DNA of 63,189 nt, the filler included, from Reclinomonas americana ATCC 50394 (lineage: Eukaryota), in the NCBI GenBank assembly GCA_048213135.1. It is 13 parts of 13 records of this genome, joined end to end, with 100 filler letters (N's around TTAATTAATTAA, not from the genome) between each part and the next. Parts side by side here need not be neighbours in the genome. Positions count along the whole stretch, not along the records: positions 7,195 to 13,524 come from AFZH01023724.1; 12 more parts are not named here. One strand, written 5' to 3'. The notes under the pieces are model-generated. The model ran no database searches. It worked only from the letters and a program-made list of their open reading frames with translations, and was not told the DNA's origin. Position numbers and translations under genes: made by a program. Below, one piece after another: positions 1,338-43,600 of this stretch (positions within the stretch are counted from its first letter, which is position 1; the number at the start of each line of letters is the position of its first letter).

Positions 1338-4300
1338 TTCCTCAGAAAACGACGCGCTCGTTGCCACTGATCCCAAATTGCCTCTCTTTCTTCCACAAGC
1401 TGCGACACGAGTGTTGACATCCACTTGGAAGTGCCGCAGTGCTCGATCTAAAGCAACAACTTCACTACTCTCTCCAATTTCTACGAGAACTGCACTGTCG
1501 CGAGCCCACTCCATGCACGCTGAAGAACACTGTGCGCCTCTCATCTCTTGAAATTCTCTTACTCTACACAAAACGCAAAACGATTCCTTCTCTTCCCTCT
1601 TTCTCGTTCCCTTTCTTGTGCACGTGACACACCTTCCAGTCATTACACAGCCATCGACAGGCGATGTGGAGATTGTCTGGATGGCCTGACTGTGACCTGC
1701 TCATTACAAACACGCCCCGTGAGTGATCAACCTGCGTGAAACACTTCCAACACCAACGCACCATCATGCCGACCCAGCATCTTGCCAGTGCCAATGTCCT
1801 GCGTATCAGATGCGTGAGACAATCGCGCTGGTAATGCAAGTGGCCGAGTGCTTCATACGCACCCAAACCAGCAGCGTGTGAGCAATGTCGTCGGTGGACA
1901 GCACCATCGTTTCGACAGCGTTGAGGGAGACGGGAGTTCGTTTCCGGTGCTGCAGCGCGCGAGATGTCAGGACTCGGAGATTGAGATGACGAATATCGAA
2001 CAGCTGCTCACCCCGGCAGAGATGCCGGCAAACGCGCGAACTTCTTGACCTGTGATCAAGAGGGATCGCATGAGGGACAGGGAAAGAGAGAGCAAGAGAG
2101 AGCGAGTGTTGATAAACAGCGCATTCGTGCACAAAATCACAAAGGATTACGAAATAGTGAAGGAGAGAGAGAGAGAGAGGAGAGAGAGAGCACTTAGATT
2201 ACCAGACGAGTCCACTGCAAGAACACGCTCACACATGAAGATTTCAACACATTTAACAACACAAAAGTTATAATCTCAGCCAAGGAGATAGAGAGGAGAC
2301 ACAGAATCGTTGCATGATGTACGGGAAAAGCGATAAAGTTCGCTGCAAGTCGGTAGACGCGCTCAGCAGTAAGCAGCAGAGCGACGAGAATATAGTAGCA
2401 ACCAAGGAGGGAAGAACGCAGCAGAGTATGACGACGGCGTTGGAGCACGCACGGCTTGCGTCACAAGACACGCGATCAAAAGGAAGATACACACCGTGCA
2501 GATCGCACGAGATCTTAGAAAAGAAACGACAAGAAGAGACATGACCCATTCAAGCACACGTCTTCTCCCAACACACCTGTCCTCACATCCCAGCACCGCA
2601 ACGACGAGTCGGCCCCAGTGGAAAACACATGCGAGCCGTTGTCGGAGATGGCCACCGAGCTGACCAGCTTACTGCGATGACCGTTGGGGATTGTGCGAAC
2701 ACGACGCAGTGTTCGTCCGTCCAGCACTTCGATTGTCGAGCCCGATGTGCAAACCACATGCGAACCGTCACCCGATACCTGTGATGGTGACATGTGAGCA
2801 AACGGCGAGAAGAAATGGTACACAAGTGGAAGCTGGAGACAGAAATGCAAGGCGAATCCAGCACCGACTATCTCACTCGTAAGTAAGCCTGCTGACTGTC
2901 TGCCTTCGTGCTTGACCGCGTCGCGAGCACCCAAAGCGCAAGCTCAACTTCGACGTGTCCCTCACTCGGCCTGATTCTTTGTCTGTCTCTCGCTTCCTTT
3001 TTCCCTACTCAGCTCACCCTCACTGCTCCACATGGAACCCTCTCCGGGAATGTGGACACCGCGTGATAAATCCCCGGTCCATCCACCTCGTCGATCTTGA
3101 TCACGGCCAGTGCCGCCGCCGTGCGTTCCGGCTCATTGGTCACGCAAAACACGCACGTGCCGGAGGGATGAATCTGCGAGCCGGAGATGGGGTCGCCAAA
3201 GAAAGCGGCCACCGAGTGTGAGGCGCGCTTTTGCTGCTGCATGGCTGAGTAGCCTGTGCATTGATGAGAGAAGCAAGAGTGTGAGAGGAGAAGAGCAAAC
3301 GAAGGAAGCACGCAGGAAACACGGCACACAAGACAGCGCGAGGGAGAGAGACAGGCGTTGTAATGGGGCACGAGCGAAAGAAAAAAGAAGAACGCAGGAA
3401 ACACGGTGAGAGAGATATACAAAGGGCGGGTTCGGGAAACAGAGCGAGAGGTCGTTGTAACGGGGCATTAGAAAGCAGAACGCAGGAAATACGGAGAGAG
3501 ATACACACACTGAGGAGTCGTTGTGAAAGACATGAGTGAATCGTGCCACGCAACCCATTTGCTGCACGAGGGAGCTGCTGACGCCGTGCGAAAAGTCCCA
3601 TATTTTGAGCTGCCCGTCGAGCGACGAGGAAACAACGAGCGGCGCCACTCGCGAGAACGACACATCGGTGACCGTCTGTGAATCTCCCCCATGAGCAATC
3701 TACGACGTACGGAATGCGGCCTTTGTAAAACAACACCTTGGTGTGATCGTACAGAGTGCGGATCACCGGCCGCGCCATGACCGGATCGTCCAGCTCGACC
3801 TTGTTCAAGTCGTGCGCGCGCATCTTCTCCACGTCGAGGATCTTGAGTGAGGCGTCCTCCGATCCAGTGCACACGAGGCTCCCTGTGGGAGAGAGAGAGG
3901 GTGTAAGCATGGACCCCATATCCCTTCCCCGTTTCCTCTGCCAAGAACCAACCATCGGCACTGAATGCCGACGCCGTGCACGGCTCCTTGTGCGTCGTGA
4001 TGAATCGCGTCTCCAAGTGATACTCGGCCTCTCGCGCTGCACTCGCCCCACTGGCCTCGCCCGCCAACAGGACTCCCTCCACGCCGCCGAAACGCATCGC
4101 CGGTACGTCGTCTGCGAGCGTGGGCGGGAGGAGACTGGAGCCGCAGCCAAAGAGCTGCAGGCGGTCGCTGGCGATTGATCGGAGGGTGGAGCCGAAGCGC
4201 CGGGAGGAGAGTGGCGGTGGTGCGGCGGCGGAGGAGGCGGTGGAGGAAAAGGAGGACGAGGAGGAGGGCATGCCAAAATCGGGGTCTGGTGGGGAGGAAG

Positions 4301-7094: not shown

Positions 7095-7194
7095 NNNNNN
7101 NNNNNNNNNNNNNNNNNNNNNNNNNNNNNNNNNNNNNNTTAATTAATTAANNNNNNNNNNNNNNNNNNNNNNNNNNNNNNNNNNNNNNNNNNNN
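7095..7194. other. Artificial contig linker (N44-TTAATTAATTAA-N44); 11 more start at 13525, 16354, 21069, 26941, 31466, 39766, 44195, 47001, 48561, 52610 and 55264
   Basis: Identical 100-nt spacer with stops in all frames; not biological. Confidence 0.98.
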
Positions 7195-7856
7195 TTCCTT
7201 CCCTCCGCCCTCCTCTTCCTCCTTCCCTCCCTCCCTCCGCTCTCTCTCTCTCTCTCCTCCTCTCTCTCTCTCTCCCCCTTCCTCTTTGTGTGTGTTGTTA
7301 GAGACATGTCGACTTGTGTTTCGACACCTCCCACGCCTTTTTTCCGACTTTTTCAGTCTCATGTCACGTACATAAGAGAGAGATAGTATACATACCGCGT
7401 TATACAGAGAAACAGAGAAAGAGAGCGCGCAAGAGAGAGAGACAAGAAAGCATTTGCAGTGCATATGGTTATTTATAGCACATACCATTTCTGGGTCTTT
7501 TCTTGTTGCTAATCAGAGACAAGTGTGTGGTAAAAGACGGGCGGTGTTTTGCTGTTGATTGTTGTGCAGTTGCAGATCGCGGAAAACGCTGCTTGACTTG
7601 AGTGGCGCGCGCGCGTCTCGCCAAGTAAAATTGCAAGTGGAAAATTCATCGTATCAAATCCGGCGGGACCCACCAGACAATTCCTGTCGGCGTTGGCTTA
7701 CTTTCTTGTCGGATTTGGGATTTGCTTCCTTTTTGTCCGCGTCAACACGCTTTGGTTGTGTGCTCGCAGGTGCGTGCTTCGTATTGCGCGCATTGTTCAC
7801 TTCCTCTGCTCACGCGTCTTGTGTGTACGTGTGCAGGCACGCATGTGCATGCAGCA

Positions 7857-9391
7857 ATGAGGTACGCGCGTGCTGCGACTGATGTTTTGTTTCTCGTCTT
7901 TGGTTGTACCTCCTTCGCTTATGTATGACATGCGTTTTGTGTGTACTTTGCGTGTGTGTGTGTGTGTGCGAGTGTGTTTGATAGTTCTGGGCAAAGGAAG
8001 GCTTGCGACATGGCGAGAAACGGAAAGGTTGAGAAGCTCCGGGAGTTGGTGTTGCGTGAGGGTCCTGGCATTCTACTCAGTCGGGACCACATGGATTCGC
8101 TCGGCGGCTCGGCATTCTTGGTCGCTGCATGCGCGGGCCGTGTAGCAGTGCTGCAGTACTTGATGGACGAGAGTGGCGTTGGCTCGGAACTTGTCGAGCG
8201 AGTCGACGACCGCGGTCGGACGCCGCTGATGGGCGCTGCTGATGCTGACAAGGAGCAAGTGGTGACGTGGCTGCTTGCAGACGAGCGACGATGCCCGCGG
8301 CATGTGGTATTGGCAGTCTCCGGTGACCGCGACACGGAGACATATCCCAAGTCGACGGCGTTACACTATGCTGCCGTGAAAGGCCACCTCAAGATAGTGG
8401 AACTGCTCGTCACCAAGTTTTTCGAACTCGTCTCCATGGTCGACAAGAGCGGCAAGACAGCGGCGGAGGTGGCACGCGATCGCAACAAGCAGGATGTTGC
8501 TCGGTACCTGTCGCAAGCACGTGCGCCGAGGCCTGTGGTGCCACCAGGTGAGTTTCCTCTGTCGTGTGCGCATCACGGAACGTACTTGCTCATGCGAGTT
8601 CCGTGGATGAACTATCATTGTGGTGCGCACAGCTGTGAGGTATGACGATCGGTGTGTTGCAGTTGAAGAGGGAGCGCTCCGTGACCTCAATTGATTTGTG
8701 TGTTGCACAACATGCAGCGCGTCTCCTCCTTCCCCTTCCCCTCCTCCTCCCCCTCCCCTCCTCTCCCTCCTCAGCAAGAGAGGAAGAAAGCGTGGTTGAT
8801 GGCCGAGGAGGGCGACATTGAGGCACTGCGCAAGTTGAATGCGGATGAGAGCCAGGACAACCTGTTGCGCATACTACTGGAAGAGAAAGACGGTTTCGGT
8901 GGCAATGCATTCTACGTTGCTGCTGCCCACGGTCAGCTGCCTGTGTTGGAATTGCTGTGGGTCAGAAGCGGATGTGGTCCGCAGCTCGCCTCAGCAGTCA
9001 CCAACTATGGGTGGACGCCACTAATGGTCGCTGCCAAAAACGGGCATTTGCGAGTGGTCAACTGGCTTCTCGCAGATCCGCGACGATGTCCTGCGAACAG
9101 CGTTCTGGCCGTCGTATATGACAGCGACAAGGAGTTTGCGAAGTCTTCAGCTTTGCATATCGCTGCCATGAGCGCATTACTTATCGACGACGCGGGTCGG
9201 GTGGAAGAAGAAGACTCTACACGAATTGTGGATCGTCTCCTCCGAGCGAGTAGCGGCTTGGACCTGATTCGCTTGGTCAACGGAAAAGGAAAGACAGCAG
9301 CGGCATGGGCGCGCGACCACGGCAAGAAAAGTGTGGCGGAGTTTCTGGACCGGACGCTGCTGCGCATGCAACGCGAAGAAGAACAACTACA

Positions 9392-9422
<31 letters not shown>

Positions 9423-9509
9423 CAACAACAACGGCTGCAACAACAGCGACAGCAGCAGCAGCAACAACAACAACAACAGCTACAACTTCAGCAGCAGCAG
9501 CAACAACAA

Positions 9510-9544
<35 letters not shown>

Positions 9545-11621
9545 GCAGCAGCAACAACAACAACAACAACAGCCAGTGCTGCGAAGTCCTCCACCTTCTC
9601 CGTCATCTCCACCAAGTGCGTCGCCCTTGTTCCCGCACTCTGTGTGGCAATTGTGCTCATCACCTTCTTGTACAAGTAGTGGCTTCGAATTCTGTGGTAC
9701 CGGTGGTACCAGCTGCCGCATCTCCCCCTCGCCAGGAGGTGATCACAATGCTTCGATCCATTTCAGTGTCCTCCGCCACAAGTACTCACCCATCGCGCTG
9801 CTAACAGTCCGTGGTTGACGCACGTGCGCTGGCCGACAAGGACGCACTCGTCGCTCAGCTTCAGCGCGATCTTGCGGCAGCGCATCAGGAGCGAGAGGAG
9901 CAGCAACGAGAGTGGGAACGCCAGCGACGAGACCATGAGGACATTGTCGACGAGACGCTCGGTCGCCTTGCGACTGTGGAGGCTGCCCATGTCGAGGCGC
10001 ACCAGCAACTGGCAGGACTAGAACGGGTTGTCGCCGAATGGCAACGAGCGCATAATGCGGAACAACAGAGATGTTGTCAACTTCAGCGTGCGCTAGATGA
10101 GGCCCACGCTAGCGCTGATCGTTCGCGTGATGCTCAGTCAAGACTTGCCGCTGAACGGCAGCGATCGGAGGAACTCGCCACTGAAGTCGAGCGCTTGCGA
10201 GTTGCCTTGCATGGTGAGGTCGTGCAGCTGGTGCTCGTTCAAATTCCAGATCTTCCTTACAGTATCATTGTGAGCAGCTAGAGAGCACTTTGCGGTAGAT
10301 AATGGACTCCGCATGTACGAGTGGGCCGATATCGTGGAGGCCACCGACTCATTTTCACCAGGCCAGAAGGTTGGCGAAGGTGGTCAGGGACAAGTGTACG
10401 TCGGCTATCTCGTGGATTTTGAAGTTGCGATAAAGGTGCTCGACCGTGACGCACCGTGGACGAAAGAATCGTTTGATGCTGAGGTGAGTTGGTTGGTCGT
10501 GAAGATGATGGTGATGGTGAGGAAGAATATATAATATCACCCAAGAGTTACGGATCCTGCATATGCATACGCAGTTGAGAACTGTTGGGAGTGTGAGGCA
10601 CCGCCGACTGATACCACTACTCGGCTATGCCGAGGGAACTGATAAAGAGCGATGCCTAGTTTATCAGGCCATGAGGTATGTGTGAAAGACGTGACCCGAA
10701 GACAAGAAGCCATGAATGCTCGTGTAATTCTACATGCTCCGATGCGCAGTGGGCAGGATCTGGATGTTCGACTGCTGAATCGTAAGCCCGGTTTGATGCC
10801 ACTGACTGTGACAGAGCGCGTGCAAATTGGGCTCGGCATTGCCGAAGGGCTGGCATTCTTGCATGAGGTGTGTACCTTCACTTGTAAGTCGCATTGCACT
10901 GTAGTCAGTGTGCACTTCCTGGTTTCTATGCTGCTCTGTGCACCTTGTGCAAAAATGCTCACCGACGATTGTTTTGTCACCGAGTGCAGCGGAACATTAT
11001 TCACTGCGACCTGAAGCCCGCCAACATTCTTCTCGGCTTTCGATGTGAGCCACGGATCGCTGACTTTGGCATCGCGCGCATATTGGGTCCCGAAGTGGTG
11101 CGTGCGTGCTCTAATTTTATCCCCGCTGCAAGCTTTGCCCTCACAGAAATCTTGATGGGGCAACAGACCCATGATCGAACCCTGAAGCGTGTAGGCAGCA
11201 AGGATTACGTTGATCCTCGGTACCTCCAGACCTGCAAAATACGCAAGTCGATGGACCTGTACGCTTTCGGAGTCATACTGCTGCAACTTCTTACAGGCTT
11301 GGAATCATCCGTGGTGGTGCGCTGGGCTGCCAAGCATGAAGACGATGTCCACAAAATCGATGCGTCGTCGATGGCCGACATATCTAGTGGTCAGTGGCGA
11401 CCAGATGTGGCACGTGGAATGCTGCAGCTGGGAGTGCGGTTGCGTTCGATTTGATCATGGATGAAGATGTCGAGAGTTTCGCGCTGATCCTGACGACAAG
11501 AAACCGCACTCAACGCAGATGCATGACGCTGTACGAAACGAATCGACCGACCGCGAGCGATGCATGGGACGAAATGAAGCGACTGCGTGAGGCACTTCGC
11601 GACTATTTGCACGAGCTGTAA
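7857..11621 (+). CDS. Ankyrin-repeat / polyQ / coiled-coil / IRAK-Pelle (RLK-Pelle) non-RD Ser/Thr kinase
   Basis: Ankyrin motifs GRTPLMGAA, TALHYAAVKGHLKIVELL and GWTPLMVAAKNGHLRVV. Kinase: YEWADIVEATDSFS..VGEGGQGQVY..VAIK..VRHRRLIPLLGY..LVYQAM..GLAFLH..HCDLKPANILL..IADFGIAR..YVDPRY..DLYAFGVILLQLLTG..CMTLYETNRP. TAA at 11621. Exons between the polyQ and the coiled coil are approximate. Confidence 0.85.
9384..9572 (+). repeat. Coding CAG/CAA polyglutamine tract (roughly 55-60 Gln)
   Basis: Mixed CAG/CAA run in frame with the second ankyrin block. Confidence 0.9.
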
Positions 11622-11843
11622 TTGACAGCGCGGACCTGATTCCACCTGCTCATTTTTGTGCGAGCCGTCGTAGTTTGTTTCTCTTAGCATTGTGAATACA
11701 CATGGACATGAAGTTGTCGCAATCGCTTGTGCGCGGGGCAGCATTTGTCAGTGTGTGATGGTGGCGCGATTCCGATGTGAACGACCAAGATATGTCGGAG
11801 CAACATTGAGATATTCATGCAATTGAATTCGCCCCTGGCACCC

Positions 11844-13380
11844 TCACCGCCCCACCGCCACAATCGTGTGCAACCCGTACCCATCACCCGCATCGAGTCC
11901 ACCCACTCGCACGCGGCACACCGGACACACACCATTCGTCGCCACCACTTGCTCTGCGCATTGCTTGCAGAGCACCTCGTGCGTGCAAGGAACAAGTCTC
12001 GTCTCGCGCGGCAGCCGGTCGCACGCCATGCACGACCGCCGGGACGCCAAAACCGTGAGGTCGACCAGCTCGGAAGCCACTTGCTGCGCCGTGGGTCGTC
12101 GAGCTGGACGGCCATCTAGGCATCTGCGAAGGCGGAAAGTCAATCCACATCTCCAGTTGCTCGTTTCACTCACGCTCTCTCTCTCTCTCTCACAGCGAAA
12201 GAGAACAGAAGCATCTATGTCTTACGATCCTGTGCCTGCTGGGGATTTGCTCTCTGACACACATACAGCTGGGCGAGGGGATGGGATGGGATGAGGAGGA
12301 GAGAGAAGGAGAGTTGTGGTGGTGAAGAGGAGTGCACCCACAGATCGCCTTTGATATGGATAGAGCGATTGAAACAATCTATGTCTCTCTTCTTCCTCCA
12401 TCCCCTTGTTCAGCAAGTTCCCCTTCTCCCTCTCGACCTTCTTCTGCTTCTCCTTGACTTTCTTTCGTTTTTCCTCGCCAACCTTCTTCTCCCTCGACCT
12501 CTTCCTTTTCCTTCTCCTTGCTCATCCCCTTCATCTCCACCACTTGATTGCTCTCACTTGTGTTCTTCTCCTTGTATTGCTCCTCCTCTTTTTTCTCCGT
12601 CTTGTCCTTCTCCTCCTTCAGTTTCGTTATTCCTCGCCAACCTCACTTCTCCCTCAGATCTCTTCCTTCTCCATCCCCTTGGTCATCCCCCTTTCTCTCG
12701 ACCACTTGATTGCTCTCGCTTGTGCTTTTTCCTTGTCTGCTCCTCTTCTTCCTCCTTTTCTCCTTCTTGCCCTTCCCCAGCTTCTCCTTCAGTTTCGTTA
12801 TTCCTCGCCTTCTTCACTTCTCTTCTTCCTCTTTCTCCTTGCTCACCACCTTCCCCTCCAGACCACTCGATTGCTCTCGCTTGTGCTCTTCTCCTCGTAT
12901 TGCTCTTCCGTCCAATCTGCCCTTCTCTCTCCCTTTCCTATTCTTCCTCTCTCTCTCTCTTTGGTCAGTTCCATTCGTTCACATAAGCTGCCTCGCCACC
13001 TAATCCTCTCGATGCACCGTGCCTTTCCCTAAACCTTCCCACTACAAACCTCAGCGCCAGCCGCACAAGGCCTCCACACACAGTCGCCGGCCACGGACGA
13101 CCGACTCGCGCATCGGCAAGCTCCACGGCCGCACGCACCAGTGCCTGCCCGCCGCTGCCGTCGTCGTCGTCGTCCTCCGCACTCTCCACCAACTCCTCCA
13201 ACGACTCCAAGCGCCGATGCACCTCCTCGATCGGCAGTCCGCTCAACACCTGCAGCACAATCAACCCCAGCGTGAACACGTCCGAGCTCGACCGCAGCTG
13301 TGCGTGCATCGCCTTGGGGTCGGTGTACTTTGGGTCGCTCATGAAGGGGACCGTGGCGCGGCTCTGGGAAGCGCAGAGGA
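11844..13380 (-). CDS. IRAK/Pelle-type kinase C-lobe plus C-terminal RING finger (C3HC4, IAP-like); 5' part lost in the gap
   Basis: KYTDP..SSSDVFTLGLIVLQVLSGLP..LADARVGRPWP..LVRLALR, intron ~13048-12124, then CLDGRPARRPTA and CMAC..LVPCTHEVLCKQCA..CPVCR. Stop at 11844. Confidence 0.8.
12430..12920. repeat. Pyrimidine-rich intronic repeat (~165-bp period) in the kinase-RING gene
   Basis: accact(t/c)gattgctctc(a/g)cttgtg at ~12540, ~12701 and ~12862; ccttcagtttcgttattcctcgcc occurs twice. Confidence 0.75.
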
Positions 13381-13624
13381 GTGAGATGGCGAGGAGAAGC
13401 GAGAGGGAGACCGAGATGGGAACGCTGGAAGCAGCGAGAGGGAGCGGGAGCAGCGACAGGGAGCGGGAAAAGCGAGAGGAGCGGGAGCAGCGAGAGGGAG
13501 TGAGCAGCGAGAGGGAGCGGGAGCNNNNNNNNNNNNNNNNNNNNNNNNNNNNNNNNNNNNNNNNNNNNTTAATTAATTAANNNNNNNNNNNNNNNNNNNN
13601 NNNNNNNNNNNNNNNNNNNNNNNN

Positions 13625-16353
13625 GCCGGAAACGTGGTTGTGCACGGTTCGCTCTCGACATGTTCACTAGTTGTGCCAACAGTGTCTGACTTGTTGCCTC
13701 TCTCTCCTCCTCCTCCTCTCTCTCTCTCCCTCCCTCTGTTGTCAACTCTGCAGACTCGATGCTCCAGTTGCAGGGGTCACTGGCGGACACGATCGTACCG
13801 ACCAATAGCACTGTGTCACTCGGCTGGACGTGCAATCGCGCCGACCAGTCGTACGTGCATGTGCTGGCGATTGAGAAGATTGTTGATATCTCGCAGCCCT
13901 CTCTTGCGTCTCGCTATTCATACGTGGAGACGTCGTTGCCTGTCAACAGCGCCTTTGCCAATGTGGTTCGTCTGTCACTCGTCTGAGTTCCACTTGGGGG
14001 AAGCGGCCAGTACTCACGCACACGACACAGGATCCGAGAACCTTGGTGGACTACGACCCAGCTACCGAGCGGGTGACCGCTCTGGTCCTGGGCGGCGCGT
14101 CGTCGTGTGTTGGATCGGATGCCGCGACCGTGTCATCGGTGCCGTTAGATACTGGAGAAGCGGGGTCGTCAGCGTCGCTCGCTCCATTGTCGGTGACGGC
14201 TCGCACAGTGCGAGCTGCTGTCACGAACTCGATCAGTTGGGTGATTTCACCGGACTGGCCACAGACCACATCTGTGCGGCTGGTCGTGGTCGACGCCACA
14301 GCCACGGCAATCAGTGCGGACACTCGCTTCTTCACTGTCGGTATGCTCACTCTACTATGTCGTACTTCGTGGTACGTGTGGTGAGCAGAGACTGACTCGT
14401 TGCGTCCAGGTGCTTCTGTGGCCTCGTTGACGATTGGCGACTGGGATGTGCGTGCCTGCGACAACATTTTCGATTGCTACTGGTACGCAGTGGTGGCTGG
14501 TGCGTGGGTGATTGTGGTGGCTGTGTTGGCGATCTATGCCGTCGTGGTTTGCATTCGGCGTCGCCGTGCCCCCGCTTCGGAGTCGACACAAGCGGCGCCA
14601 GTGGTGTTTGCCGATCTTCAGCCTTCTGTGCCTGCGTCTGCGCGCAAACTCTTTAGTTGCGAATCGGCCTTGCATTTTACTTTCCTACACTCTCGATCTC
14701 ACCGAGATGTGTGTGCAGATGTCATGCCAACACCTGCGCCAATTGTCAAGTGGCCGGTGGTACCCACTCGCGCATGGGAGGAGCCCGATGCTCTTGAGGT
14801 TTCCACGGACGAAGTGGTGGCTGCACGGCAAAAGTTGTTCCCGGAGGACGGTGGTATAACGCAGTGGGGTACTTCGCAGTCTGATGCTCCACCACTCCCT
14901 GCGGTTCGCGCCCTACCGCCAGTCTCCCGTGTGTTGGAGACAGCAGAGTTGTCTCGGCGGCGTCATGTCGCGTTGCTTGTTGCGTTTCGCCGTGATGTGT
15001 GCGAGTCGACAGCAAATCTGTGCTTACCCTACCTGCGCTTTCCTTTTTTTTCAGGATCCGAGCTCAATGTCACAGCCACTTCCGTTACCACCTCCCATCT
15101 CGCTTGCGGCGCAGCAGCGACTGGCGGTGAGTGGTGTTGAGGACGCAGCTGGTGCCGGTGTACTTCTCCCTGGCGCGGTGCAAGAGCCGGTGGCGCCGGC
15201 AGAACAGTCCACCGATGCTGGTGAGGACCAAGTGCTGCCGGGTGCAGAGCGTACTCGCAGTCCCTCGCAACTTCCGTCGCGGCCATCATCCGCTGGCAGT
15301 GGTGGTGAGCGTGCTGCCATTGTGGCTCGACTGCTTGCCCGGCGTTCGTCCGCCGTGTCGCAGCCGGACGACATGTTTGGCGTGGTGCCTGACGGCGAAA
15401 CTGCGCCGTCAACTGTCGCCAGTTCGGTACGCACGTCGCCAGTGCAGGCGTTGGCGGAAACATGGGCCGAGCGCACCGCGGCTTCTCACGCGAGAGCCAG
15501 TCCGAGACCGAGTATCACGCGTCCGAGCCTGGCTGCGCTGTCAGAATCAAGTGCAGTCTCGCTTGTTCTTCGCGAAACTCCTGGTGCTCCACACGACTCT
15601 CGTTCGCGTCAGGCGGAGACTCCGGGTGCCGGCGACATTGGTGACGAGCGAATCGTTTTCATTCCACCAACCGGTGCAAAGCTGCCTCCACCCTCGCCTC
15701 CATCGTTGCGTTACCTTGCCTTTTTTGTCCGCTAGTGAGTCGGTTGTTGCTCACACCCCGTCGTCGTTCACACATGACAGAGGCCCTGCGGACGACAAGT
15801 CGGTGAACGGTTCTGCCACGTCGCTCCTGTCGCGTCTGCGAGTGTCGCGCCCGCGGCCCAGCGGTCGGTCTCGTCGATTTATGATGGCGACTGCCAACTC
15901 TGACTCGGACGAAAATGAGCTGTCGTCGTCGGCTTCGCGAAGTCGATCGCGGGTGAACACTGCCTCGGGCAGCATGAGTTCATCAACAGGTGACACACGA
16001 TCGACGCACACCAGCAGTGCAATCGGCGACACAGATGACGAGGACGCGTGGCGTCGGCGGTCAGGTACGCAAGAAAACAAGCAGGCAGACACGCAGAGAA
16101 AGAAGAAGAAGAAGAAGAAGAAGAGAGGAGGAGCAGACATATGCTGCAGGTGGTTTGTAGTAATTCGTGGATGGAGGCTGAATGCATGTTTGTGTTGTGC
16201 GTGTGTTCTAGTTGCTGCGGCTGGCGTTGCTGGAGAGCGTGCACCTGCTGCAAGCCCTGGAGCTGGCGCTGCGCTGCACTCACCGGAGGTCGCTGCTGGT
16301 CTTTCTCCGCGGCGATATGCGCCGTCGAGACGCGATGAAGATAACGGTTTGTG
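13625..16353 (+). CDS. Orphan single-pass (type I-like) membrane protein, multi-exon, truncated by gaps at both ends
   Basis: Beta-rich exons (13754-14340), a hydrophobic helix WYAVVAGAWVIVVAVLAIYAVVVCI followed by RRRR, then a long Ser/Pro/Arg-rich tail. No family recognised. Confidence 0.55.
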
Positions 16354-16453
16354 NNNNNNNNNNNNNNNNNNNNNNNNNNNNNNNNNNNNNNNNNNNNTTA
16401 ATTAATTAANNNNNNNNNNNNNNNNNNNNNNNNNNNNNNNNNNNNNNNNNNNN

Positions 16454-21197: not shown

Positions 21198-22727
21198 CAT
21201 AAGGACGGCGATGGCACACGCAAAAACAACTCCGTAGTCGAAGATGGAGGCCCTGCCCACCAGCACCGAGTAGAAGATAAAGTCGCCGAGACCGAGATGC
21301 ACCTTTTCACCTGCGTCCCACTCACTTCTGTCAGATGTGCGAGGCGGTGGAAACAAATGCAGAGAGATGCATGCACGTACCCTTGTAGACCAGTGCCGGT
21401 AGTGTTTCGTTGCGCTCCTGCGCCGTTTCGACCAGCACCTTTAGCGGTCCGCGCGGTGTGAGGACGACGACCAGGTCGTAGATGGCGACCAGTGCCAAGA
21501 ACACCCATGTTGTCCACTCGGGCAGGCGCACCAGCCACCAACCCTACAGTGCGTTCTCAGGAAGAGAGGGGAGGGGGGGGGGGGGGAGGGAGGAGGGAGA
21601 AGGTGAGCAAGACGAACCACCATGGCTCCCAGCAGCACCGTGTAGCAGCGGTTGATAAACACTGGTCCGTGCCAAAATAGTGTCAAGCAGCCGACCTACG
21701 TGTGCACGCAGCGTGAGGGGTGCGGGGTTGTGTGTGTGTGTGCGAGAGAGAGAGAGACGAACCACCGCAAAATTGTACAGAACCAAACTGAAGGTGAGCC
21801 AGTCGCACCGAATGTTGTACGATTGGAGGAACAAGCTGCCGCCGTCGCCCGCATGAGCACTCTGTGTCGTGAAGGAATACAGCAACTTGATAGAGGACGC
21901 AACTACAGCCACGCGAATCCAAACATGAACACCATGAGGATCGCCGAGCCAATCAGCCACACGTAAATGACCTGCCAAAGACAAGCAAGAGATGAGAGCC
22001 GGCAACGGCCTGAGGAAACGCCCGCTCGCACAACACGCAACCTTCATGCAGCGCATCTTGTACAGAATCACCAACAACACCGTGACCAACAAAATGATGC
22101 CGACCAGCACCAAGGCATTCAACAGGGAGCCACCCAGTCGCGTCGACACTGAATCATCCGAGCTCTCCGTGTACACCAGTCCCAGACTACACGCAAGTCG
22201 CACCTGAGCCAGCACTACGCAAGAGCGGCCTCGCGCGACCGCAACTCACCTCGACTGCCCGAACTTTTGCAACGTGGAGAAGAAGGTGCGCACGGCCCAC
22301 AGCACCAGCAACAGACACATGAGCACCGGCATCAGCACAGAGACCACAGAGATGGAGTATGTCTTGACAGTCTTCCACTTGTAGCGCTGTCGCTGCAATC
22401 GTTGCTCGGTCGTCGACACTTGTCTATCATCATCATCATCATCATCAATCAATGCACGATGTGTTGTGTGAGTGTGTGCACAGCCAGACAGACAGGAGAG
22501 ACCACACGCAACGAGACAACAGGAGGAGCAACGAGTGCGTCATCAGCGGCCACCTCTTGTGCCCTCACTGCAACGTGTGTCTGCGGAGGTGCTTGCTGCT
22601 GCTGTTGTGCGACTGCTGCTCCCTCATCCTCATCGTCATCATCCCACTGTCCATGCCACCCAGCCGCCGACTGCGCGCTCATTGGCCGCATCTCGGTGCC
22701 TTCCTCCCCATCACCGCGTCTTCCCAT
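21198..22727 (-). CDS. PSEN: Presenilin (gamma-secretase catalytic subunit); last exon(s) with the PAL motif lost in the gap
   Basis: [48 protein letters not shown] and [16 protein letters not shown] (YD and GxGD catalytic motifs). Confidence 0.93.
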
Positions 22728-24269: not shown

Positions 24270-26707
24270 ATGAACGCCACTGCAGTGCGGTGGCGGCGAC
24301 TTGCATCAATTGCACTGCTCATTGTGCTGCTCCTGCTCTTCCTCACACATGTGCATGCCGACGAGAACAATCACTCGGTGATTCCCGCGCGCGCGCGCGC
24401 GCTTCTCAGACATACACACACACACGTGTCAATAGCAATGCTCATCCTGTGCCTCCTCCTCCCTCTCTCCCCTCTGTGTGTGCGCGTGTGTGTGTGCAGT
24501 ATGCTGATGGCGACGAGGTGATTGTGTGGGCGAACAAGATCGGTCCTGTGCACAATCCGCAAGAGACGTACTCGTTGTACTCGTTGCCGTTCCAGCCGCC
24601 CATGGAGATGAAGACCAAGTACCAGACACTGGGCGAGGCACTGGAAGGGAATGAGCTGATTGAGTCACCATTCAAGGTCCTTTTCAAGGAGGAGACGCAG
24701 GATCCGGTGTTCTTGGCCTCGACCATGGGATCGCTGCAGCGCACTACACAGGAGATGCTGCACGATGCGATTGTCGAGCAGTACGTCTATCACTTTACGA
24801 TTGGTGCGTAGGAGGAGGGAACGCAGCGCGGGGATCCGCCCTTTCTATTTCTCACACATGTTGGCATGCATGCAGACGAGTTGCCGGTGTGGGCCTTGTT
24901 GGGCGAGTACGATGGCAAGGCCGACAAGGCGTACCTGTACACGCACCTGGACTTCTCGTTGGCCTACAACGGCTTCCGCATCATCGAGGCCAACCTGACC
25001 ACCATGCAGCCGGAGGATGTCGACAACCTGGACTCGTTCCGCATTTCGTACGCGGTGCGGTGGCACGAGACCGACACGGTGTTCGAGAGGCGTGGAGAGC
25101 GCTACAACGATGAGGCATTCTTCGAGCACAAGGTACATGTGTGCAGCCAGCGGTGCGGTGCCGTCAACAGCAGCGTGCGTCTGACTGGTGTCGTGCAGAT
25201 CCACTGGTTCAGCATCTTCAACTCGATGATGATGGTGCTGTTCCTGGCCGGTCTGGTGGCCATGGTCATGCTGCGCACGCTGCGAAGAGATATCGCGCGG
25301 TACCAGCGTGACGGCGCCTCCAACGGGCTGCTGGACACCGAGCTGGGCAGTTCTGAGGACGGACACTTTGACAAGATTGGCGACGACTCTGGCTGGAAGC
25401 AAGTGTCGCGCGACGTCTTCCGCACGCCACCAAACATGACGATTCTGGGTGCACTGATTGGCACCGGCATGCAGCTCATTCTCATTGTGTTTGTCGTCAT
25501 TCTCGTCGGTCTGGTGGCGTCGAAGCAGTACGCTCGGTGGGCGCCCAATTGCCTCCTGTTTTGTCTCTGTGCTCACAGCATGCGTGTCGACTCACCCCGT
25601 GTTCCCCTGGGGGTGACGCAGCCGCGGGTCAGTGCTGTCGGCCTTCGTAATCGGCTTTGGGTTCACGTCGTTTGTGGCCGGCTACGGTTCCGGCAGCTTC
25701 TCGGCGCGCTTCCCCAATCCCGACTTTTCGCGTCTGGAGGCCATCTTGGTGACCGCCGCGCTCTATCCAGGCATGGCCGCCGCCGTGGCCGTGACGTACA
25801 ACTTGGTGGCCACATTCTACGGCTCACTGAGTGCCATCCCGTTCGGAACCATGGTACTGTGTACACATTGCATAATGGGGAGGAGAGAGAGAGAGAGCAC
25901 TAACGACGTTGCGCAGATGATTGTGTTCTTCTTGTGGGCGCTGATCTCGTTGCCGCTGACCTCGGTCGGCTTCATTGTCGGCCGCTCGCGCAACGTCGAG
26001 CACAAGCACCCGGTGGAGCCAATCCGAACACAACCATTACCACAGCACAAGCGGCACGTGCACCAGCCGTGGTTCCTGCGACGCACCACGCTGATGGTGG
26101 TCGGTGGTCTGCTGCCGTTCGGGTCGATCTTTATCGAGATGTACTTTATCCTGTCCTCGTTCTGGGCCTATAAGTTTTACTATCTGTTCAGCGTGAGTCT
26201 ATGGTGGCCATTTCCCCTCTCTTTTTCGTTGCTTTCTCGCTGAGCATTGTCGCGTTGCGCGCAGGTGATGCTGGTGGTGTACGGCATGCTCATTGTGGTC
26301 GCCGCCTGCACCAGCGTGGTGCTCACGTATCTGCAGCTCAACTCCGAAGATCCACGGTGGCCATGGTTTGCCGGCACGCTTTTTTTGTTGTCTCCCTTGT
26401 CTTTGCCGGGTTTTCACGTGTACACGCAGGACGTGTTTCGGATCGGGCCTAATGACCGGCCTCTATGTCTACTGCTACTCGCTCTACTACTTCCTCTTCA
26501 AGACCAGCATGACGGGCTTCCTGCAGACGCTCTTCTACGTCGGCTACATGGGACTGTTTGCCATTGGCGCCGGCATCCTCTGCGGTGAGAGCACAACAAC
26601 ATGCGTGCAACATCTGCACATGACTGACTCCCTCCACAGGCACCGTGTGCTTCCTCGCGGCCTACGTCTTTGTCAACAAGATTTTCCGCGATCTGAAATC
26701 CGACTAA
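24270..26707 (+). CDS. Transmembrane 9 superfamily (EMP70/nonaspanin) protein, TM9SF3/TMN1-like
   Basis: Signal peptide, WANKIGPVHNPQETY, FEHKIHWFSIFNS, GWKQVSRDVFR, GGLLPFGSIFIEMYFI and C-terminal LKSD-TAA. Eight GT-AG introns keep the frame. Confidence 0.93.
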
Positions 26708-34230: not shown

Positions 34231-37200
34231 TCACCAGAGTAGAGGAAGCCGGCAACAGAAATGCGCAACGGGGATCTGTGCGCCAAGGTGGCACACAAAG
34301 GTGAACTCGTAAGGCACCAGGAGCCGCTCTGCGAGCGTTCAAAAAAAAAAGCAGCGGTGAGAATAACAGTGCACGACTGCACGAGAGGTGGGAAGAGGAC
34401 AAGAAGAAGAGAACCGTATACAAGCAGCGGAGTGCCGTCGCCGGCGACCACATTGTCGCTGCCGGTGAAATCCATGGTGTATTCGATGGGCACATCCGAC
34501 AGATTCAGCACGCCGTACGAGAACGTGTAGGCCTGGCCGGCGTCGTAAGAAAACACTCGCAAAGCGCCGCTGTCCTTGGCAGAGCCGCGTTCTTGGATAA
34601 TTTGCGCGTACAACTCATGGATCAACTGCGTTGCGGGCAGATGCAATGGTCAGCAGAAACTGAGGCGTGTGTGCGCGAGACACACAGTCACACACCGACG
34701 GTGAGTCAATCGCGGCAGCGTGAACGCCTCCCGCATGGCCGGGCGGGCCGTGAACGCTGACAACGTACACTCGGTCGTCGAGAGCATTCAGTGCGTGATC
34801 GAAGCCAAGTCGCGACAGCCAACTCCACACAGGTGCTTCTCCATTTGCTTCCATGCGGCGTTGGAAGAACTGGACGAGGCCGCGGCGAGATAGACCCTAT
34901 TCAAAAAGAGCGTGCATAAGTTTTCAGCGTCGCTGCTTCACACGTGCCTTGGCGACATGCGTGCATACCACATGCGTACTGCAGTGCTCCACCAGGATGC
35001 GTGTACGGAACTCGTCCTCGTCGATCCTGTGGCCGGTGATGGTCTCGTGGAAGTGATTGAACTCTGCAGGCAAGCGTGTGTGTGTGTGCGCGCAAGAGTT
35101 CGCAGTTTGTTGTCGTTTACCGACACGCAGTACCTCCGTATGACAAGATCTCGTCCATGTCGAGATCGAAACGCTCGAAGATGTGCTGTGTGTGTAGATG
35201 TGAGGGTGAGCAAGTTCAACTGTTCGAGAACCCTCACAAAGTAAACGCAACAGCAATGGTCGACCGCATCTCGGACACGAGCGAGCCGTCAATCCCCCGC
35301 AAAGCCAGGGCATGTTCTGGGACGTCACCGTGGTAGCGGCATCGCAGGTTCACGCCAGTGGTGCTGCGTGCGCAGCAGGTAAGACAAAGTGCGCGCACAC
35401 GTAGAGAAACAAAAGGCGAGCACACGAAACAGCGGCACAATCTGGTACTCTCCCGGTTCCAGATCGACCGTCACTTGCACGTCGCGTGCCTGACCAGTCA
35501 CGTGCCCGGAGACGAGCTGCCACGATGAGCCGACCCGCCGTCGGACGGCCACGTCTGTCATTGCACGCGCGCTTGAGCACATGCGCATTCAAGGCAACAA
35601 ACTGAAAACACATGGTCAGCGTACCAACATCCACATTGTGTCGTCGATCTTCCACGCCCAGAGAGCGCTCGTCCTCTTGGTGCACGCCAATGTAGAATGT
35701 TCCAGATTGTAGCACATGCAACTCAAACGCGGTGGAATCCACTGCACCATCTGCACGCCGGTGGAAAGAGCCGCGTGCGCGCGACTCGTCCCACTTTTGC
35801 GTCCTTCTCGCAGCATGTTACGGTGAGGCACGGTGGGAGAAGGAAAGGTGCAACGCAACAAGGACGAAACATGCACACGGTAATGTCGCAAAAATAGTTG
35901 ACAAACGAATCAAACGACATCCAGAACGAGCCGCCACTGCGACGGAGGCGCGGGTTGACAGCGTGCACCATTTCCGGTGTCCACCGCTCAGACTCGTCGG
36001 ACCACTCGCCATTCCTACACACACGAGTCAGATGTACGCCCGCCAGGCATCCGTGGAGACGAAAACAAACCATCTGCGTGCACATACAGCAAAGAAAGGT
36101 GAGGCCGTCATACAATGAGGAACAATCGCAGATCAACGCACACTCCATTGCCCCAGGGGTTGCGCAGCAGCACGAGTTGATGTCCATGTGCCTCGACAAC
36201 ACGCAGTAGTGTGTATGCCTGTGGCCTTGAAGATGAGCACGTACATCAACACGGAGACCGAGCACGCGAGACGCACGTGGCCGGGCACGAGGCCCGTTGC
36301 CGCTCGCAGATCATCAATGCCGAGTTGCGTGGAGAATTCGTGTTGATCTGGTGCAACACACAGAAATTTAAGCATGGCGCCGCGAAGCAATCGTGCAGAC
36401 ACGCAGTGAACACTCACCTCTTGTCGCCGTGCACATGAGGTGGTTGCGCGCTAGTGCATCCACCAACTTCTCCCACAACTCGCCCGACGCAATCATGGCC
36501 TGCCCACTCTCTCGGTGCATGTCGTACCTCGCAAAAGGAGCACCGGTCAAGTCGATCAACGCTTCGCGTGTCATACCACCACGGAGCTGCACGCACAAAC
36601 ACCCCACGTTAGCTGGCAAACACGAAGACGGGGATGATGAAGATGACGGGCTCACATTGTCGTAGGTGCCGGCGAGTTTCGCAGCGGCCTTCTCGAGCAG
36701 CATGGGCCACAGCTCCGACTCGTGATTGCGAGTGTACACGGGTCCCGCGCCAGGAAAGCAGGGAAAGTAGTCGTCGAGAGTGACGGTGCGCCAGGCTCCG
36801 TTCTTGCACAATCGCACCTGTCGCTTGGCGTGTGAGGTGCATGCGGAAGGGACGAATGGAGCGTAACAAGGACACGCACTCGGTAAATGCCCTCGGAGGA
36901 CGACTCGGCACTGGGAAAGAGAGCACGGACCAGAGCCGGTTGCTCAGTGAGGGCGGCGACAGCACTCTGTGTCGCACGAGAGCTGTCAACAATCAATGGC
37001 CGCGGCGAACGCAAGACGGCAACGCACCAAAAACCAGCAGTCGCCAAGACTGCCCTGCAAAATGTCGTCGGCCTCGATCTCTCCACAAAACACCTCCGGA
37101 TGCATGCCGGCCATAAAGTCGATCGGTCTGCCGTGGAGCATTGCGAGAGAATAGAGTGTGACGGTGACGCCTGAAGCACATAGACAACAGAGATACGCAC

Positions 37201-40699: not shown

Positions 40700-43600
40700 C
40701 CACGCCCATTACACAGTACACCGAGGCCATGATCCTCGGCCCGCGTCACTTCTAGAACCTACACCTTCGCCTGGCGCCTCTTGTAAAGCAAATACATGTG
40801 TACACAATTGTCAACTCATTCGTGTCTCTCTTTTCTCTCTCTCTCTCTCTTTCTCGCTACCTGCCGCCACTGTGACCGGTCGTGGCACTGCTGCGTCTGG
40901 CACGAGCCACCATCACCAGCTGGGCCTTTTCCTCGTGCAGTCGGGCAAATGTGGTTTCCCAGGTGGCCGCCTGTCGTGCACGTGCGTGTGTGTCAGTGGC
41001 ACAACGACACGCCTTCCTTCTCTCTCGCTCTCCTCACGCACCTGGAAATTAATGTCGTCGCGCTCACTCTGCACCTGCTGCAACACCGACTCCCACTTGT
41101 CCATTTGCTCGGCGTACTCGCTGCGGACGCGCTCCAACTCTATCGCCGCTCGCCGGGCCGACTCGGCCAGCTGTTCCTCGTGGAGGCGGCGCTGTACGCG
41201 TTCGTCCAGCTCACGCTACGTGCGGCAGCGGCAGTCAGCTATGAATGAGAGAGTGCAAGTAGTGGCAGTGGGCAGACGACCACACACCTGCAACCGTTCG
41301 GCTTCCGCCTCGGCGCGCTCGCGCTCCGCCATGTGGAAGGCTAACTTGGCGACCAAACCATCCAAATCGTCGTCTGGCACCTCCGGGAAATCGCCTTCGG
41401 GGCTCTCGTGTCCATCGTCACTCACGGGTGGTGTGGGCTCCTCGTCAACTGCACAACCACAATAATCTCAGCATTCTCTCTCTCTCTCTCTCTCCTCGTC
41501 CCCGCTCCGCCACAAATCTCCTCACCGTCCACCTCCACATACGACTCGGTCGGTGGCTCGTCCTCGATGAGCACGCCGTACTCGTTAAAGTCGGCGGTCA
41601 CCACGTACAGGTCGGCGAGTGCCGAGTGACCGTCGTCGCCGCCAAAAAGAATGAGATCCCACTTGGCTGCTGGCGGCTCACCACCACCCTCCGCCTCGTC
41701 CAACTCTGGCGGCGACGGCGGTGGTGGGTACCAGCACACAGCGGTCAGAGTGTGGCCGTTGCGCGGTGCCGGTCGATACAGACCTGCACGCACCAATAAT
41801 GAGCATAGCAGACACGCGAGACACTGTTGTCGTGGGTGGGAGGATCACACCGTCGGGCACACGCCGTGTGGTCTGGAACTGTGGTGGCACCGTGTTGATG
41901 GTCAACTGCTGCCACACGCCAACATTGACGTCGAATGCCCACAGGTCGTCGAAAAACTGCGTGCCGCTGTCGCCGCCAAACACAAACATCAGATGGTCCT
42001 GCACGCACGCCGCCGAGTGCCCGCCTCGTGGTGGCGGTTGCAGCGACGACGGTGAATCGGGAGTCTGCTGCACTTCCGGCTGCGCGCCGTGACGCTGCCA
42101 GTTCGAATGTGTACCCGGGTGCAACAGCCTCCATCGGTGTGTCACTGTCGAAGGGGGGAAACAGGAGAGAGTGAGCAACTCGTGTTCTTTCGAATGTCGC
42201 AGTGTCGGTGCCACACACACACGCACCAAACGAAAAGGCCCACACATCGTTGAAGCGGTGATTGAGCCACCAGCCTCCAAACACCACTGCCGACGGCTCG
42301 CCACCAACCACGGCCTTGACACACGACTGCGCAATGCGCGGTCCCATCTCTAGTGACGGGTCGGAGCCGTCGCCGGCGGTCGACTGATGGCAGGGTGAGG
42401 ATCATCAAGGGAAGAAACGCTGTATCGCAGAGAAATGAGACGCACCACCGAGATCTCCGGTCTTCCTGCGCCATCGATCTGTGCCGTCTCCGTGTGTGTC
42501 GGTTCTTCGTCGTCGTCAGACACGTGACCGCTCATCAAGTAGCCCTCGTGACTGCGTGGGCGGGTGGCGTCCTGCTGCTGCTGTGCGCGCTGGAAATTCA
42601 CAGCCGACACGAGTGAATTTCCGAGCATCCTCGCCGCACTGCCCCACATGACTGTGCGTGTGCGACGTGAGCATGACGATGCCAACTGCGCCGGCAGTGA
42701 TGACCCGAGGAACAGAGTCCGCACCTGATTTGCGACCAGACACGCCAGCCACACTCTTCGAGCGGAGCGCCCGCCGCGCCGGCAACCGACTCCCGTTGCC
42801 GGCAGCAGGCCCCGCCCCACTGCTCGACGCCTCATCCTCCGAGACGCCATCCATCGACTGCGTCATGGTCACCGACGTCGGCGTCTCCACCATCTCATGC
42901 TCCGAATCGCACACGGTCCACTGCCCAGTGCGCGTGTCGAGACTGTGCACAAACGTGGTCAACACTCTCCTTCTCCTGTCCGCGTCGGCAGTGACAGAAG
43001 AGCAAACGCACCAGTGCACATCCTGCAGCGGGAGGGAGCCGTCGAATCCTCCAATAACATACATGCGATGCTCGTGCGCGATGCACGAGTGGAACGAGCG
43101 ACCGGATGGCAAGTGGTCACGACTGGTGACTACCTTGCGCCATCGTACGAGCTCTGGTGCCACCACAGAGACAGATAGGGAGGGAGAGAGGAGAGAGAGA
43201 GAGAGGCAAGAGAGAGAGAGAGAGCGTTAGACTGACATGACAGCGAGTGATGTGGCCGGCGGAAGGAAGAAATACACAACTCGTGTCCAACATCCACGTA
43301 TCGGCAAACAACTGCGCTCCATCGCCGCCTCCAAACAAGTACACATCGTCGCCAACCACACACGTTGAGTGGAAGAAGCGCGCTGGAGGCCGCTCACTGC
43401 TCACATCCAAACGGATCCACTCCAGCGGGTCTCGCGGATTGTCTGGTGTGGAGATGAGCTCGTGTCTTTTGAGTCTCGAGAGTGAGTGTGAGCACACCTG
43501 TTCTTCTGAGTGCGTAGAGGTCGTCGAGAGCGAGTTCTCCGGAACATCCGCCGTGCACCAGAAGCACGCCTTGTTGCTCGAGGAAGGTGCTCGAGTGGTA

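Follow-up and report, generated by a model that had tools for sequence, protein, structure and literature searches.

Animal IRAK/Pelle kinases have Pellino and TRAF6 as their partner ubiquitin ligases (E3s), which links kinases of the Pelle type functionally to ubiquitination of the RING type, and Arabidopsis KEG is built in the order RING-kinase-ankyrin-HERC2-like, with the RING at its N-terminus. Few single proteins carry out both phosphorylation and ubiquitination, and the plant group that joins a kinase to a U-box is only now being characterised biochemically. MAP3K1 has been described as a kinase with a RING/PHD-like E3 domain and dual activity. A 2026 preprint reports that Arabidopsis PUB33 is active both as a kinase and as an E3, that autophosphorylation at Thr333 regulates these two activities inversely, and that its heteromers with PUB32, a pseudokinase paralogue, dampen activity. 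In this study, we have analysed a stretch of DNA from Reclinomonas americana (63,189 bases; the whole stretch is called the window), in which two convergent kinase genes lie on one contig: gene 1 on the plus strand and gene 2, whose product would end in a RING, on the minus strand. We consider it likely that gene 2 is the 3′ part of one kinase-RING fusion gene, which belongs to a largely protist family and encodes a self-contained enzyme, and that gene 1 is its diverged paralogue. Like the plant PUB-VI/RLCK-IXb proteins (for example PUB33, PUB32 and PUB50), gene 2 would encode a kinase of the receptor-like kinase (RLK)/Pelle/IRAK type followed, in one polypeptide, by a C-terminal domain of the RING/U-box fold that binds the ubiquitin-conjugating enzyme (E2). 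Unlike them, it has a zinc-binding C3HC4 RING (PF13920) as its ligase domain, with no U-box (PF04564) C-terminal to the kinase.

Gene 2 is a 3′ fragment, cut off at the contig end at 13524. Its kinase C-lobe exon (13050–13363, minus strand) runs from the P+1 loop to helix H and covers positions 162–225 of a kinase-only profile that we built from 12 kinase-RING relatives; the translation of this exon (13363–13053) is called P0002. The last exon (11847–12123, minus) supplies the third base of a split Arg codon and the subdomain XI helix CLDGRPARRPTAQQVASEL; a short linker connects this helix to the RING, after which come a tail of 23 residues and the stop codon TGA (11844–11846, minus). P0001 is the 92-residue translation of this exon (12122–11847, minus). 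A sequence-only reading of this DNA had proposed a Pelle-like C-lobe followed by an IAP-type RING, the two being spliced together, and our searches agree with it on these points. P0001 matched the Pfam family zf-C3HC4_3 (PF13920), the subtype of the IAP, MDM2 and MYLIP RINGs, with an E-value of 1.1e-11 and 44.8 bits (cutoff 27), over residues 28–73 and profile positions 2–46 of 49. The RING finger proper (11916–12032, minus) retains all eight zinc ligands, C31, C34, C46, H48, C52, C55, C66 and C69, with the spacing C-x2-C-x11-C-x-H-x3-C-x2-C-x10-C-x2-C of a C3HC4 cross-brace; seven of them are invariant, and the eighth nearly so, in a 26-sequence RING alignment (A2). Among solved structures in the PDB, 17 sequences matched the RING exon at E<=0.01, with RNF38, Arkadia, cIAP2, MYLIP, MDM4 and cIAP1 among the proteins found, and the 11 Pfam families that matched P0001 at E<=1 included no U-box model. 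The ESM Atlas query with the RING exon gave no usable match. In many relatives the RING is followed by a common tail, G-x-F-x-x-T-F, of which gene 2 keeps part (G-Y-..-T-I). In RINGs of the IAP/MDM2 type, dimerisation is mediated by the C-terminal tail. A complex prediction with two copies of the RING region scored 0.00, in a run that did not use the family alignment, and speaks neither for nor against dimerisation.

On the kinase side, subdomains VIII–XI are significantly IRAK/RLK-like by both the PDB search and the kinase profile. The best PDB match to P0002 was IRAK4 (E 4.7e-6), followed by SYMRK, IRAK1 and BIK1, and IRAK4 accounts for 26 of the 37 sequences among the PDB matches listed. 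In the form CLDGRPARRPT, the subdomain XI motif C-x(5-7)-RP-[ST], which closes the kinase domain, stands at the beginning of the RING exon; in the alignment, its Cys falls on a residue that is nearly invariant in the relatives and its Arg-Pro on an invariant pair.

The two exons of gene 2, open over 104 and 92 codons, are separated by a putative phase 2 intron of 926 nt (12124–13049, minus; GTTTGT...TTCGCAG). The C-lobe exon ends in ...CTG AG|GTTTGT and the RING exon starts at TTCGCAG|A TGC, a GT-AG junction that restores the Arg codon. When spliced in this way, the product matched the kinase profile with 43.6 bits (E 3.2e-15) over positions 162–267, that is, to the end of the profile, as against about 25 bits and positions 162–225 for the first exon alone or for a read-through into the intron. 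Subdomain XI of the kinase corresponds to residues 1–22 of the RING exon (CLDGRPARRPTAQQVASEL...), and these raise the match by 18 bits. In addition, the spliced product aligned with 16 uninterrupted kinase-RING proteins with no gap at the junction. Because it completes the kinase profile and aligns gap-free with these proteins, we regard a splice at 13050|12123 as very likely. With this predicted splice, and only through it, gene 2 shows the arrangement of the relatives, a C-terminal zf-C3HC4_3 RING some 10–30 residues past the kinase in one chain.

The same evidence bears on the alternative that the RING belongs to a separate small gene and that the kinase gene ends by read-through at a stop codon at 12965–12967. 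The exons do lie 926 nt apart and the read-through frame stays open for 28 further codons, but the read-through adds nothing to the kinase match, whereas the N-terminal residues of the RING exon supply the missing subdomain. Moreover, in the open reading frame that holds the RING (11844–12221) the only Met before or within the start of the RING is Met32, located between the first and the second zinc ligand. The phases of donor and acceptor agree, and gene 1 has an intron at the same codon. We consider a separate RING gene very improbable.

About half of the gene 2 intron consists of a local tandem repeat (12463–12909; 161-nt unit, 2.8 copies, 77% matches), and the intron is inflated by it. As this unit has no copies elsewhere in the window, we rejected a dispersed element, and an extra exon inside the intron was likewise rejected, no residues being missing at the junction. 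Upstream of the C-lobe exon and its CAG acceptor, a CT-rich low-complexity tract (13364–13524, minus; 19-nt repeat, 5.2 copies), probably intron, reaches the contig end. The match to the kinase profile begins at residue 4 of the C-lobe exon, and the CT-rich frame upstream of 13363 was rejected as coding, its in-frame translation having no kinase similarity.

To place gene 2 among known proteins, we used an exhaustive HMMER search of 1.84 billion representatives, which returned 389 matches to the RING exon at E<=1e-3. The best of these reached 56 bits and 37% identity, which indicates that this genome's own protein is absent from that library. Among the best 150 of the 389 matches, 26 had a kinase-profile match just upstream of the RING; the profile was built from 12 of these 26 and is circular for those 12. 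Thirty matches were chosen for a Pfam scan, with preference for alignments that began close to residue 1 of the query and lay at the C-terminal end of a longer protein, and 16 of the 30 showed Pkinase followed by zf-C3HC4_3. Some of the 16 carry N-terminal additions, namely long ankyrin arrays (P0088, P0109), a CUE domain (P0077) or a dynamin-like module (P0021). Gene 2 is 27–33% identical to the kinase-RING relatives in the kinase C-lobe and 28–40% in the RING exon.

In the whole-protein alignment of 12 kinase-RING proteins (A1), the catalytic Asp, Lys and Asn and the Asp at the DFG position are invariant, which suggests that the family is mostly built for catalysis. The A1 profile found IRAK4 first in the PDB (E 5e-83), followed by SYMRK, BIK1, FERONIA and BRI1, in all cases through its kinase part. 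The ESM Atlas cluster of one relative, P0035, has 97 members, all with Pkinase and 74% with zf-C3HC4_3; its commonest phylum is Haptophyta and its label is simply "Protein kinase domain-containing protein". A literature search covering papers apart from their supplementary files found no description of a protist protein in which an IRAK/Pelle-like kinase has a RING at its C-terminus, and the passages of a Phytophthora kinome paper that were searched have neither "RING" nor "U-box" as a whole word. The kinase-RING fusion is thus an existing family, largely protist and partly haptophyte, that is apparently uncharacterised.

Several features of these relatives can be noted in their own right. DVG stands in place of DFG in five of the 16 aligned relatives (P0035, P0077, P0012, P0031 and P0133) and is the consensus of A1. 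Non-RD kinases are found in gene 1 (HCD, 10990–11010, plus) and in several kinase-RING relatives (HLD or HWD; P0030, P0088, P0109, P0139 and P0056). The same RING subtype also occurs on other N-termini (P0108, P0079, P0007 and P0009), in the combinations alpha-kinase plus RING, WD40 plus RING and beta-helix plus two RINGs, and this suggests that the C-terminal RING may be a promiscuous module in these organisms.

How close is this architecture to the systems described so far? The parallel with plant kinase-U-box proteins, drawn by the sequence-only reading, proved apt: the structures nearest to the predicted model of P0035 are clusters of plant PUB33-like kinase+U-box proteins, with both domains aligned and a template-modelling (TM) score of 0.79 by query. 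Some PUB-VI members are pseudokinases (PUB32, according to the PUB33 preprint), which parallels the divergent loop of gene 2 discussed below. There are also differences beyond the ligase domain: PUB-VI proteins carry an N-terminal USP domain, in place of which kinase-RING relatives have ankyrin, CUE or dynamin-like modules, and intron size, the lack of close plant matches and the mostly haptophyte P0035 cluster indicate that gene 2 does not come from a land plant. We also built a tree of 37 kinase domains, in which the plant PUB33-like rows group in a supported clade of their own. The branches that would set the window kinases with or apart from this clade have ultrafast bootstrap (UFBoot) values of 37–42, so that the tree gives support neither to a union nor to a separation, nor to the convergent origin of RING and U-box that the sequence-only reading had proposed. 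Since the U-box is lacking and the tree does not place it in RLCK-IXb, gene 2 is an analogue of PUB-VI and not a member.

The unnamed kinase-RING proteins of the P0035 cluster agree with gene 2 in domain order and RING subtype, in having a short linker and in the conserved tail that follows the RING; gene 2 differs in being incomplete, in lacking the P+1 Gly that is invariant in 12 relatives and in its best identity of 37%. With animal IRAK/Pelle, the likeness lies in the C-lobe, whose nearest solved structure is IRAK4. The difference is that in animals kinase and E3 are separate proteins and the IRAKs carry a death domain, while the RING of gene 2 would be fused to its kinase; no death domain was seen in the kinase-RING relatives in the Pfam scan of the 30 chosen matches. 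KEG and MAP3K1 both unite a protein kinase and a RING-type E3 domain in one polypeptide, and KEG has ankyrin repeats, as do relatives P0088 and P0109, but both differ from gene 2 in domain order and kinase subfamily. Kinase-plus-E3 fusions are therefore already known from PUB-VI/RLCK-IXb, KEG and MAP3K1; the kinase-RING architecture of gene 2 is real and apparently unstudied.

The region in which gene 2 departs from its relatives is the P+1 loop (13316–13345, minus). Here the relatives have GTxGYxDPEY, whereas gene 2 reads FMSDPKYTDPK and does not contain the pattern G-[TS]-x-x-[YF]-x-x-P-E: the Gly is replaced by Met, one residue is added and the Glu is replaced by Lys. The Gly in question is G224 of A1 and is invariant in that 12-protein alignment, so the description of the activation segment as degenerate, made from the sequence alone, was accurate. 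The rest of the C-lobe is kept, including the Asp of SDVF, the Gly that follows it (FxxG turn), LSG and C....RP(T). This combination of a divergent loop with a conserved C-lobe fits either an altered substrate-binding loop or a pseudokinase. Only the P+1 loop of gene 2 can be called divergent, because the contig does not reach the N-lobe, HRD and DFG.

This loop is also the first argument for the view that gene 2 is a decaying remnant of a duplicated kinase-RING gene that makes no functional protein. The loss of the Gly and the one-residue insertion would be expected of such a pseudogene, and so would the intron swollen by a tandem repeat, the low-complexity repeats that continue upstream to the contig end and the unplaced, repeat-bounded contig itself. 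On the other hand, both exons are open over their 104 and 92 codons, the splice sites are canonical and in phase, and the residues listed above, together with all eight zinc ligands, are retained. Furthermore, divergent P+1 loops occur in two of the 16 aligned relatives as well, P0021 and P0081. We regard a pseudogene as unlikely.

We now turn to the relationship between the two neighbours. The sequence-only reading had stated that their stop codons lie 222 bp apart, that both genes have an intron at the same position and that the two kinases are related, and all of this is borne out. The TAA of gene 1 (11619–11621, plus) and the TGA of gene 2 (11846–11844, minus) face each other across a spacer of 222 bp (11622–11843). 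In both genes, a phase 2 intron separates the third base of an Arg codon from the first two, immediately ahead of the Cys of C....RP(T): the junction reads CG|GTTGCG...ACGCAG|A TGC in gene 1 (intron 11439–11518, plus, 80 nt) and AG|GTTTGT...TTCGCAG|A TGC in gene 2, and the two positions fall in one alignment column. By our own estimate, the chance of hitting the same codon and phase is about 1 in 250, given four introns and about 325 codons in gene 1, and this low chance makes the shared intron point to common descent. The C-lobes of the two genes are 27% identical over 122 residues. In the maximum-likelihood tree, which holds 14 kinase-RING proteins, 21 relatives of gene 1 found by shared words and the two window genes, the window kinases are sisters (UFBoot 93; SH-aLRT, an approximate likelihood-ratio test, 85) and group together in 92% of 200 bootstrap trees, with no supported placement among the other RLK/Pelle-like clades. 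As they are sisters in the tree at only 27% identity, we infer that gene 1 and gene 2 are old paralogues lying side by side.

The proposal of the sequence-only reading that they form a paired kinase/E3 module fared less well: beyond adjacency on one 6.3-kb unplaced contig it has no support, and the relatives are self-contained fusions. In such a two-gene signalling module, an active non-RD kinase (gene 1) and a divergent kinase-RING ligase (gene 2) would lie tail-to-tail because they cooperate; for example, gene 1 could phosphorylate or switch the E3, or the E3 could control the turnover of gene 1. The convergent orientation with stops so close together would suit it, as would the fact that gene 1 keeps all its catalytic motifs while the P+1 loop of gene 2 is divergent, the position of the two as mutually nearest in the sampled tree and the activity-modulating heteromers that the preprint reports for the plant paralogues PUB33 and PUB32. 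However, this is a single instance, relatives with kinase and RING in one chain need no partner kinase, and gene 1 has no RING for pairing through RING dimers. Besides, 27% identity bespeaks an old duplication, and neighbouring paralogues are the default result of local duplication. A scan of metagenomes with A1, keyed on the catalytic-loop pattern, gave 76 generic-kinase loci, none of which matched past residue 351 of the 398 of the query; these loci carry no information on pairing. In our judgement, a two-gene module is improbable, slightly more so than a pseudogene.

The reading that we prefer, a self-contained kinase-RING enzyme with a diverged paralogue next to it, leads to the following model. 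The product of gene 2 would be a cytoplasmic IRAK/Pelle/RLK-like kinase that carries, about 10 residues past the kinase domain, a C3HC4 RING of the zf-C3HC4_3 type (IAP/MDM2/MYLIP-like) at its C-terminus; the 5′ half of the gene is missing because the contig ends in a CT-rich repeat. By analogy with PUB33, it would most likely act as a self-contained signalling enzyme, in which the RING would recruit E2~ubiquitin, the kinase domain would phosphorylate or merely bind substrates, and the kinase domain might also tune the ligase activity through autophosphorylation. Gene 1 would be a diverged paralogue from one lineage-specific expansion, sharing an ancestral intron, and the adjacency of the two genes would stem from an old local duplication rather than from a dedicated two-gene module.

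A number of observations weigh against this model. The junction of gene 2 is inferred from genomic sequence, and its intron is 8–12 times longer than the four introns of gene 1 (74–122 nt). The C-lobe exon alone matched Pfam Pkinase with an E-value of 0.19, below threshold, the exon being too short, and the loss of the P+1 Gly may mean that the kinase part is inactive or decaying. Family membership rests on distant similarity with no close relative found: word-indexed searches of longer proteins, with the RING exon and with the C-lobe exon, gave no match. In the tree, the sister grouping falls just under the strong-support mark of the tool and the gene 2 row fills 40% of the columns; this genome is represented there by gene 1 and gene 2, with no other paralogue, so that "sisters" may mean merely members of one lineage-specific expansion. 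The kinase-RING rows also do not form one clade in it (4 changes); either what we call a "family" comprises several fusions that arose independently, or the tree lacks resolution at this point.

Our finding suggests that non-plant eukaryotes have fusions of IRAK/Pelle-like kinases with true RINGs, often together with ankyrin or CUE modules. If so, the coupling of kinase and ligase could be studied in a wider range of organisms, with a bearing on the evolutionary assembly of the signalling parts known from Pelle-type, innate-immunity-style pathways. A bolder proposition is that Pelle kinases with an IAP-like RING are a widespread protist counterpart of PUB-VI/RLCK-IXb and, in addition, that gene 1 and gene 2 are kept as a working pair; were it true, the coupling of Pelle-type phosphorylation to RING/U-box ubiquitination would predate plants or would have arisen repeatedly, but we consider it a long shot. 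The value of the gene 2 locus itself is limited, as it is a fragment on an unplaced contig whose pairing is without support beyond adjacency.

The kinase domain of gene 1 (10277–11621, plus) was modelled with five exons (10277–10483, 10575–10675, 10750–10867, 10990–11438 and 11519–11618), separated by four GT-AG introns of 91, 74, 122 and 80 nt. It has a Gly loop, VAIK, HCD (a non-RD variant) and DFG, ends 14 residues past subdomain XI and has no RING. It matched the kinase profile of the kinase-RING family with 202.8 bits, and plant RLKs are its best matches in the PDB. Its nearest word-sharing relatives (n = 21) are plant RLK/Pelle kinases; among them PF13920 is found in none and a U-box in two, and one more is named PUB33-like. 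From DFG to the P+1 loop, the activation loop is longer by about 20 residues (11087–11146, plus), a stretch that contains in-frame GT...AG pairs of 45 or 60 nt, and it could be an unusually short intron instead of an insertion.

The N-terminal part of gene 1 (8685–10210, plus), read from open reading frame translations without exon boundaries, comprises ankyrin repeats (Ank_2, E 1.2e-13), a poly-Gln tract encoded by CAG/CAA and a coiled-coil-like region. Between the ankyrin and coiled-coil parts, the Gln-rich run extends over about 65 residues with few Leu/Arg breaks and mixed CAG/CAA codons (9380–9570, plus). A further ankyrin module in an open frame at 7929–8642 (plus; Ank_2, E 7e-19) resembles that of gene 1 at 8800–9300, and the two have in common the stretch TPLM...V.WLLAD.RRCP...VLAV. 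To judge from this resemblance, the module looks like a tandem duplicate of the ankyrin module of gene 1, either as a separate gene or as extra 5′ exons, and such a duplicate would mean that local duplication is visibly active on this contig.

The window consists of 13 contigs of 1.5–8.2 kb each, split by 12 identical copies of the artificial linker N44-TTAATTAATTAA-N44 (7095–7194, 13525–13624, 16354–16453 and 9 more), which account for 24 runs of exactly 44 N between the parts. Both kinase genes lie on the contig at 7195–13524 (6,330 bp, GC 0.551), which is unplaced. The suggestion that a gap at 13525 be closed, so as to read the remainder of gene 2, does not hold: what stands at 13525–13624 is one of these linkers and not a sequencing gap inside a scaffold, the contig beyond it is unrelated, and a linker between unplaced contigs cannot be closed. 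As the contigs were joined artificially, adjacency across any linker carries no meaning. An exact 40-nt search of metagenome contigs, aimed at extending the contig, found no match, and an Rfam scan of the whole window matched no family. When the 12 kinase-RING relatives were compared with the window by tblastn, kinase, RING or ankyrin pieces appeared only between 8103 and 13372, with no such match on the other 12 contigs.

Microsatellites of the (CT)n/(GA)n type and CT-rich low-complexity tracts are very common throughout the window (for example at 12170–12190, 12950–12960 and 13690–13740), and both give rise to a large number of "SLSLSL" open frames that are spurious. For several contigs, the end seems to lie inside or close to a repeat of this kind. 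Finally, the other contigs carry pieces of housekeeping genes, namely presenilin, EMP70/TM9SF, a calpain protease, Kelch repeats and WD40 repeats, at 21547–22245 (minus), 24812–26240 (plus), 36371–36943 (minus), 42519–43226 (minus) and 3136–3699 (minus).

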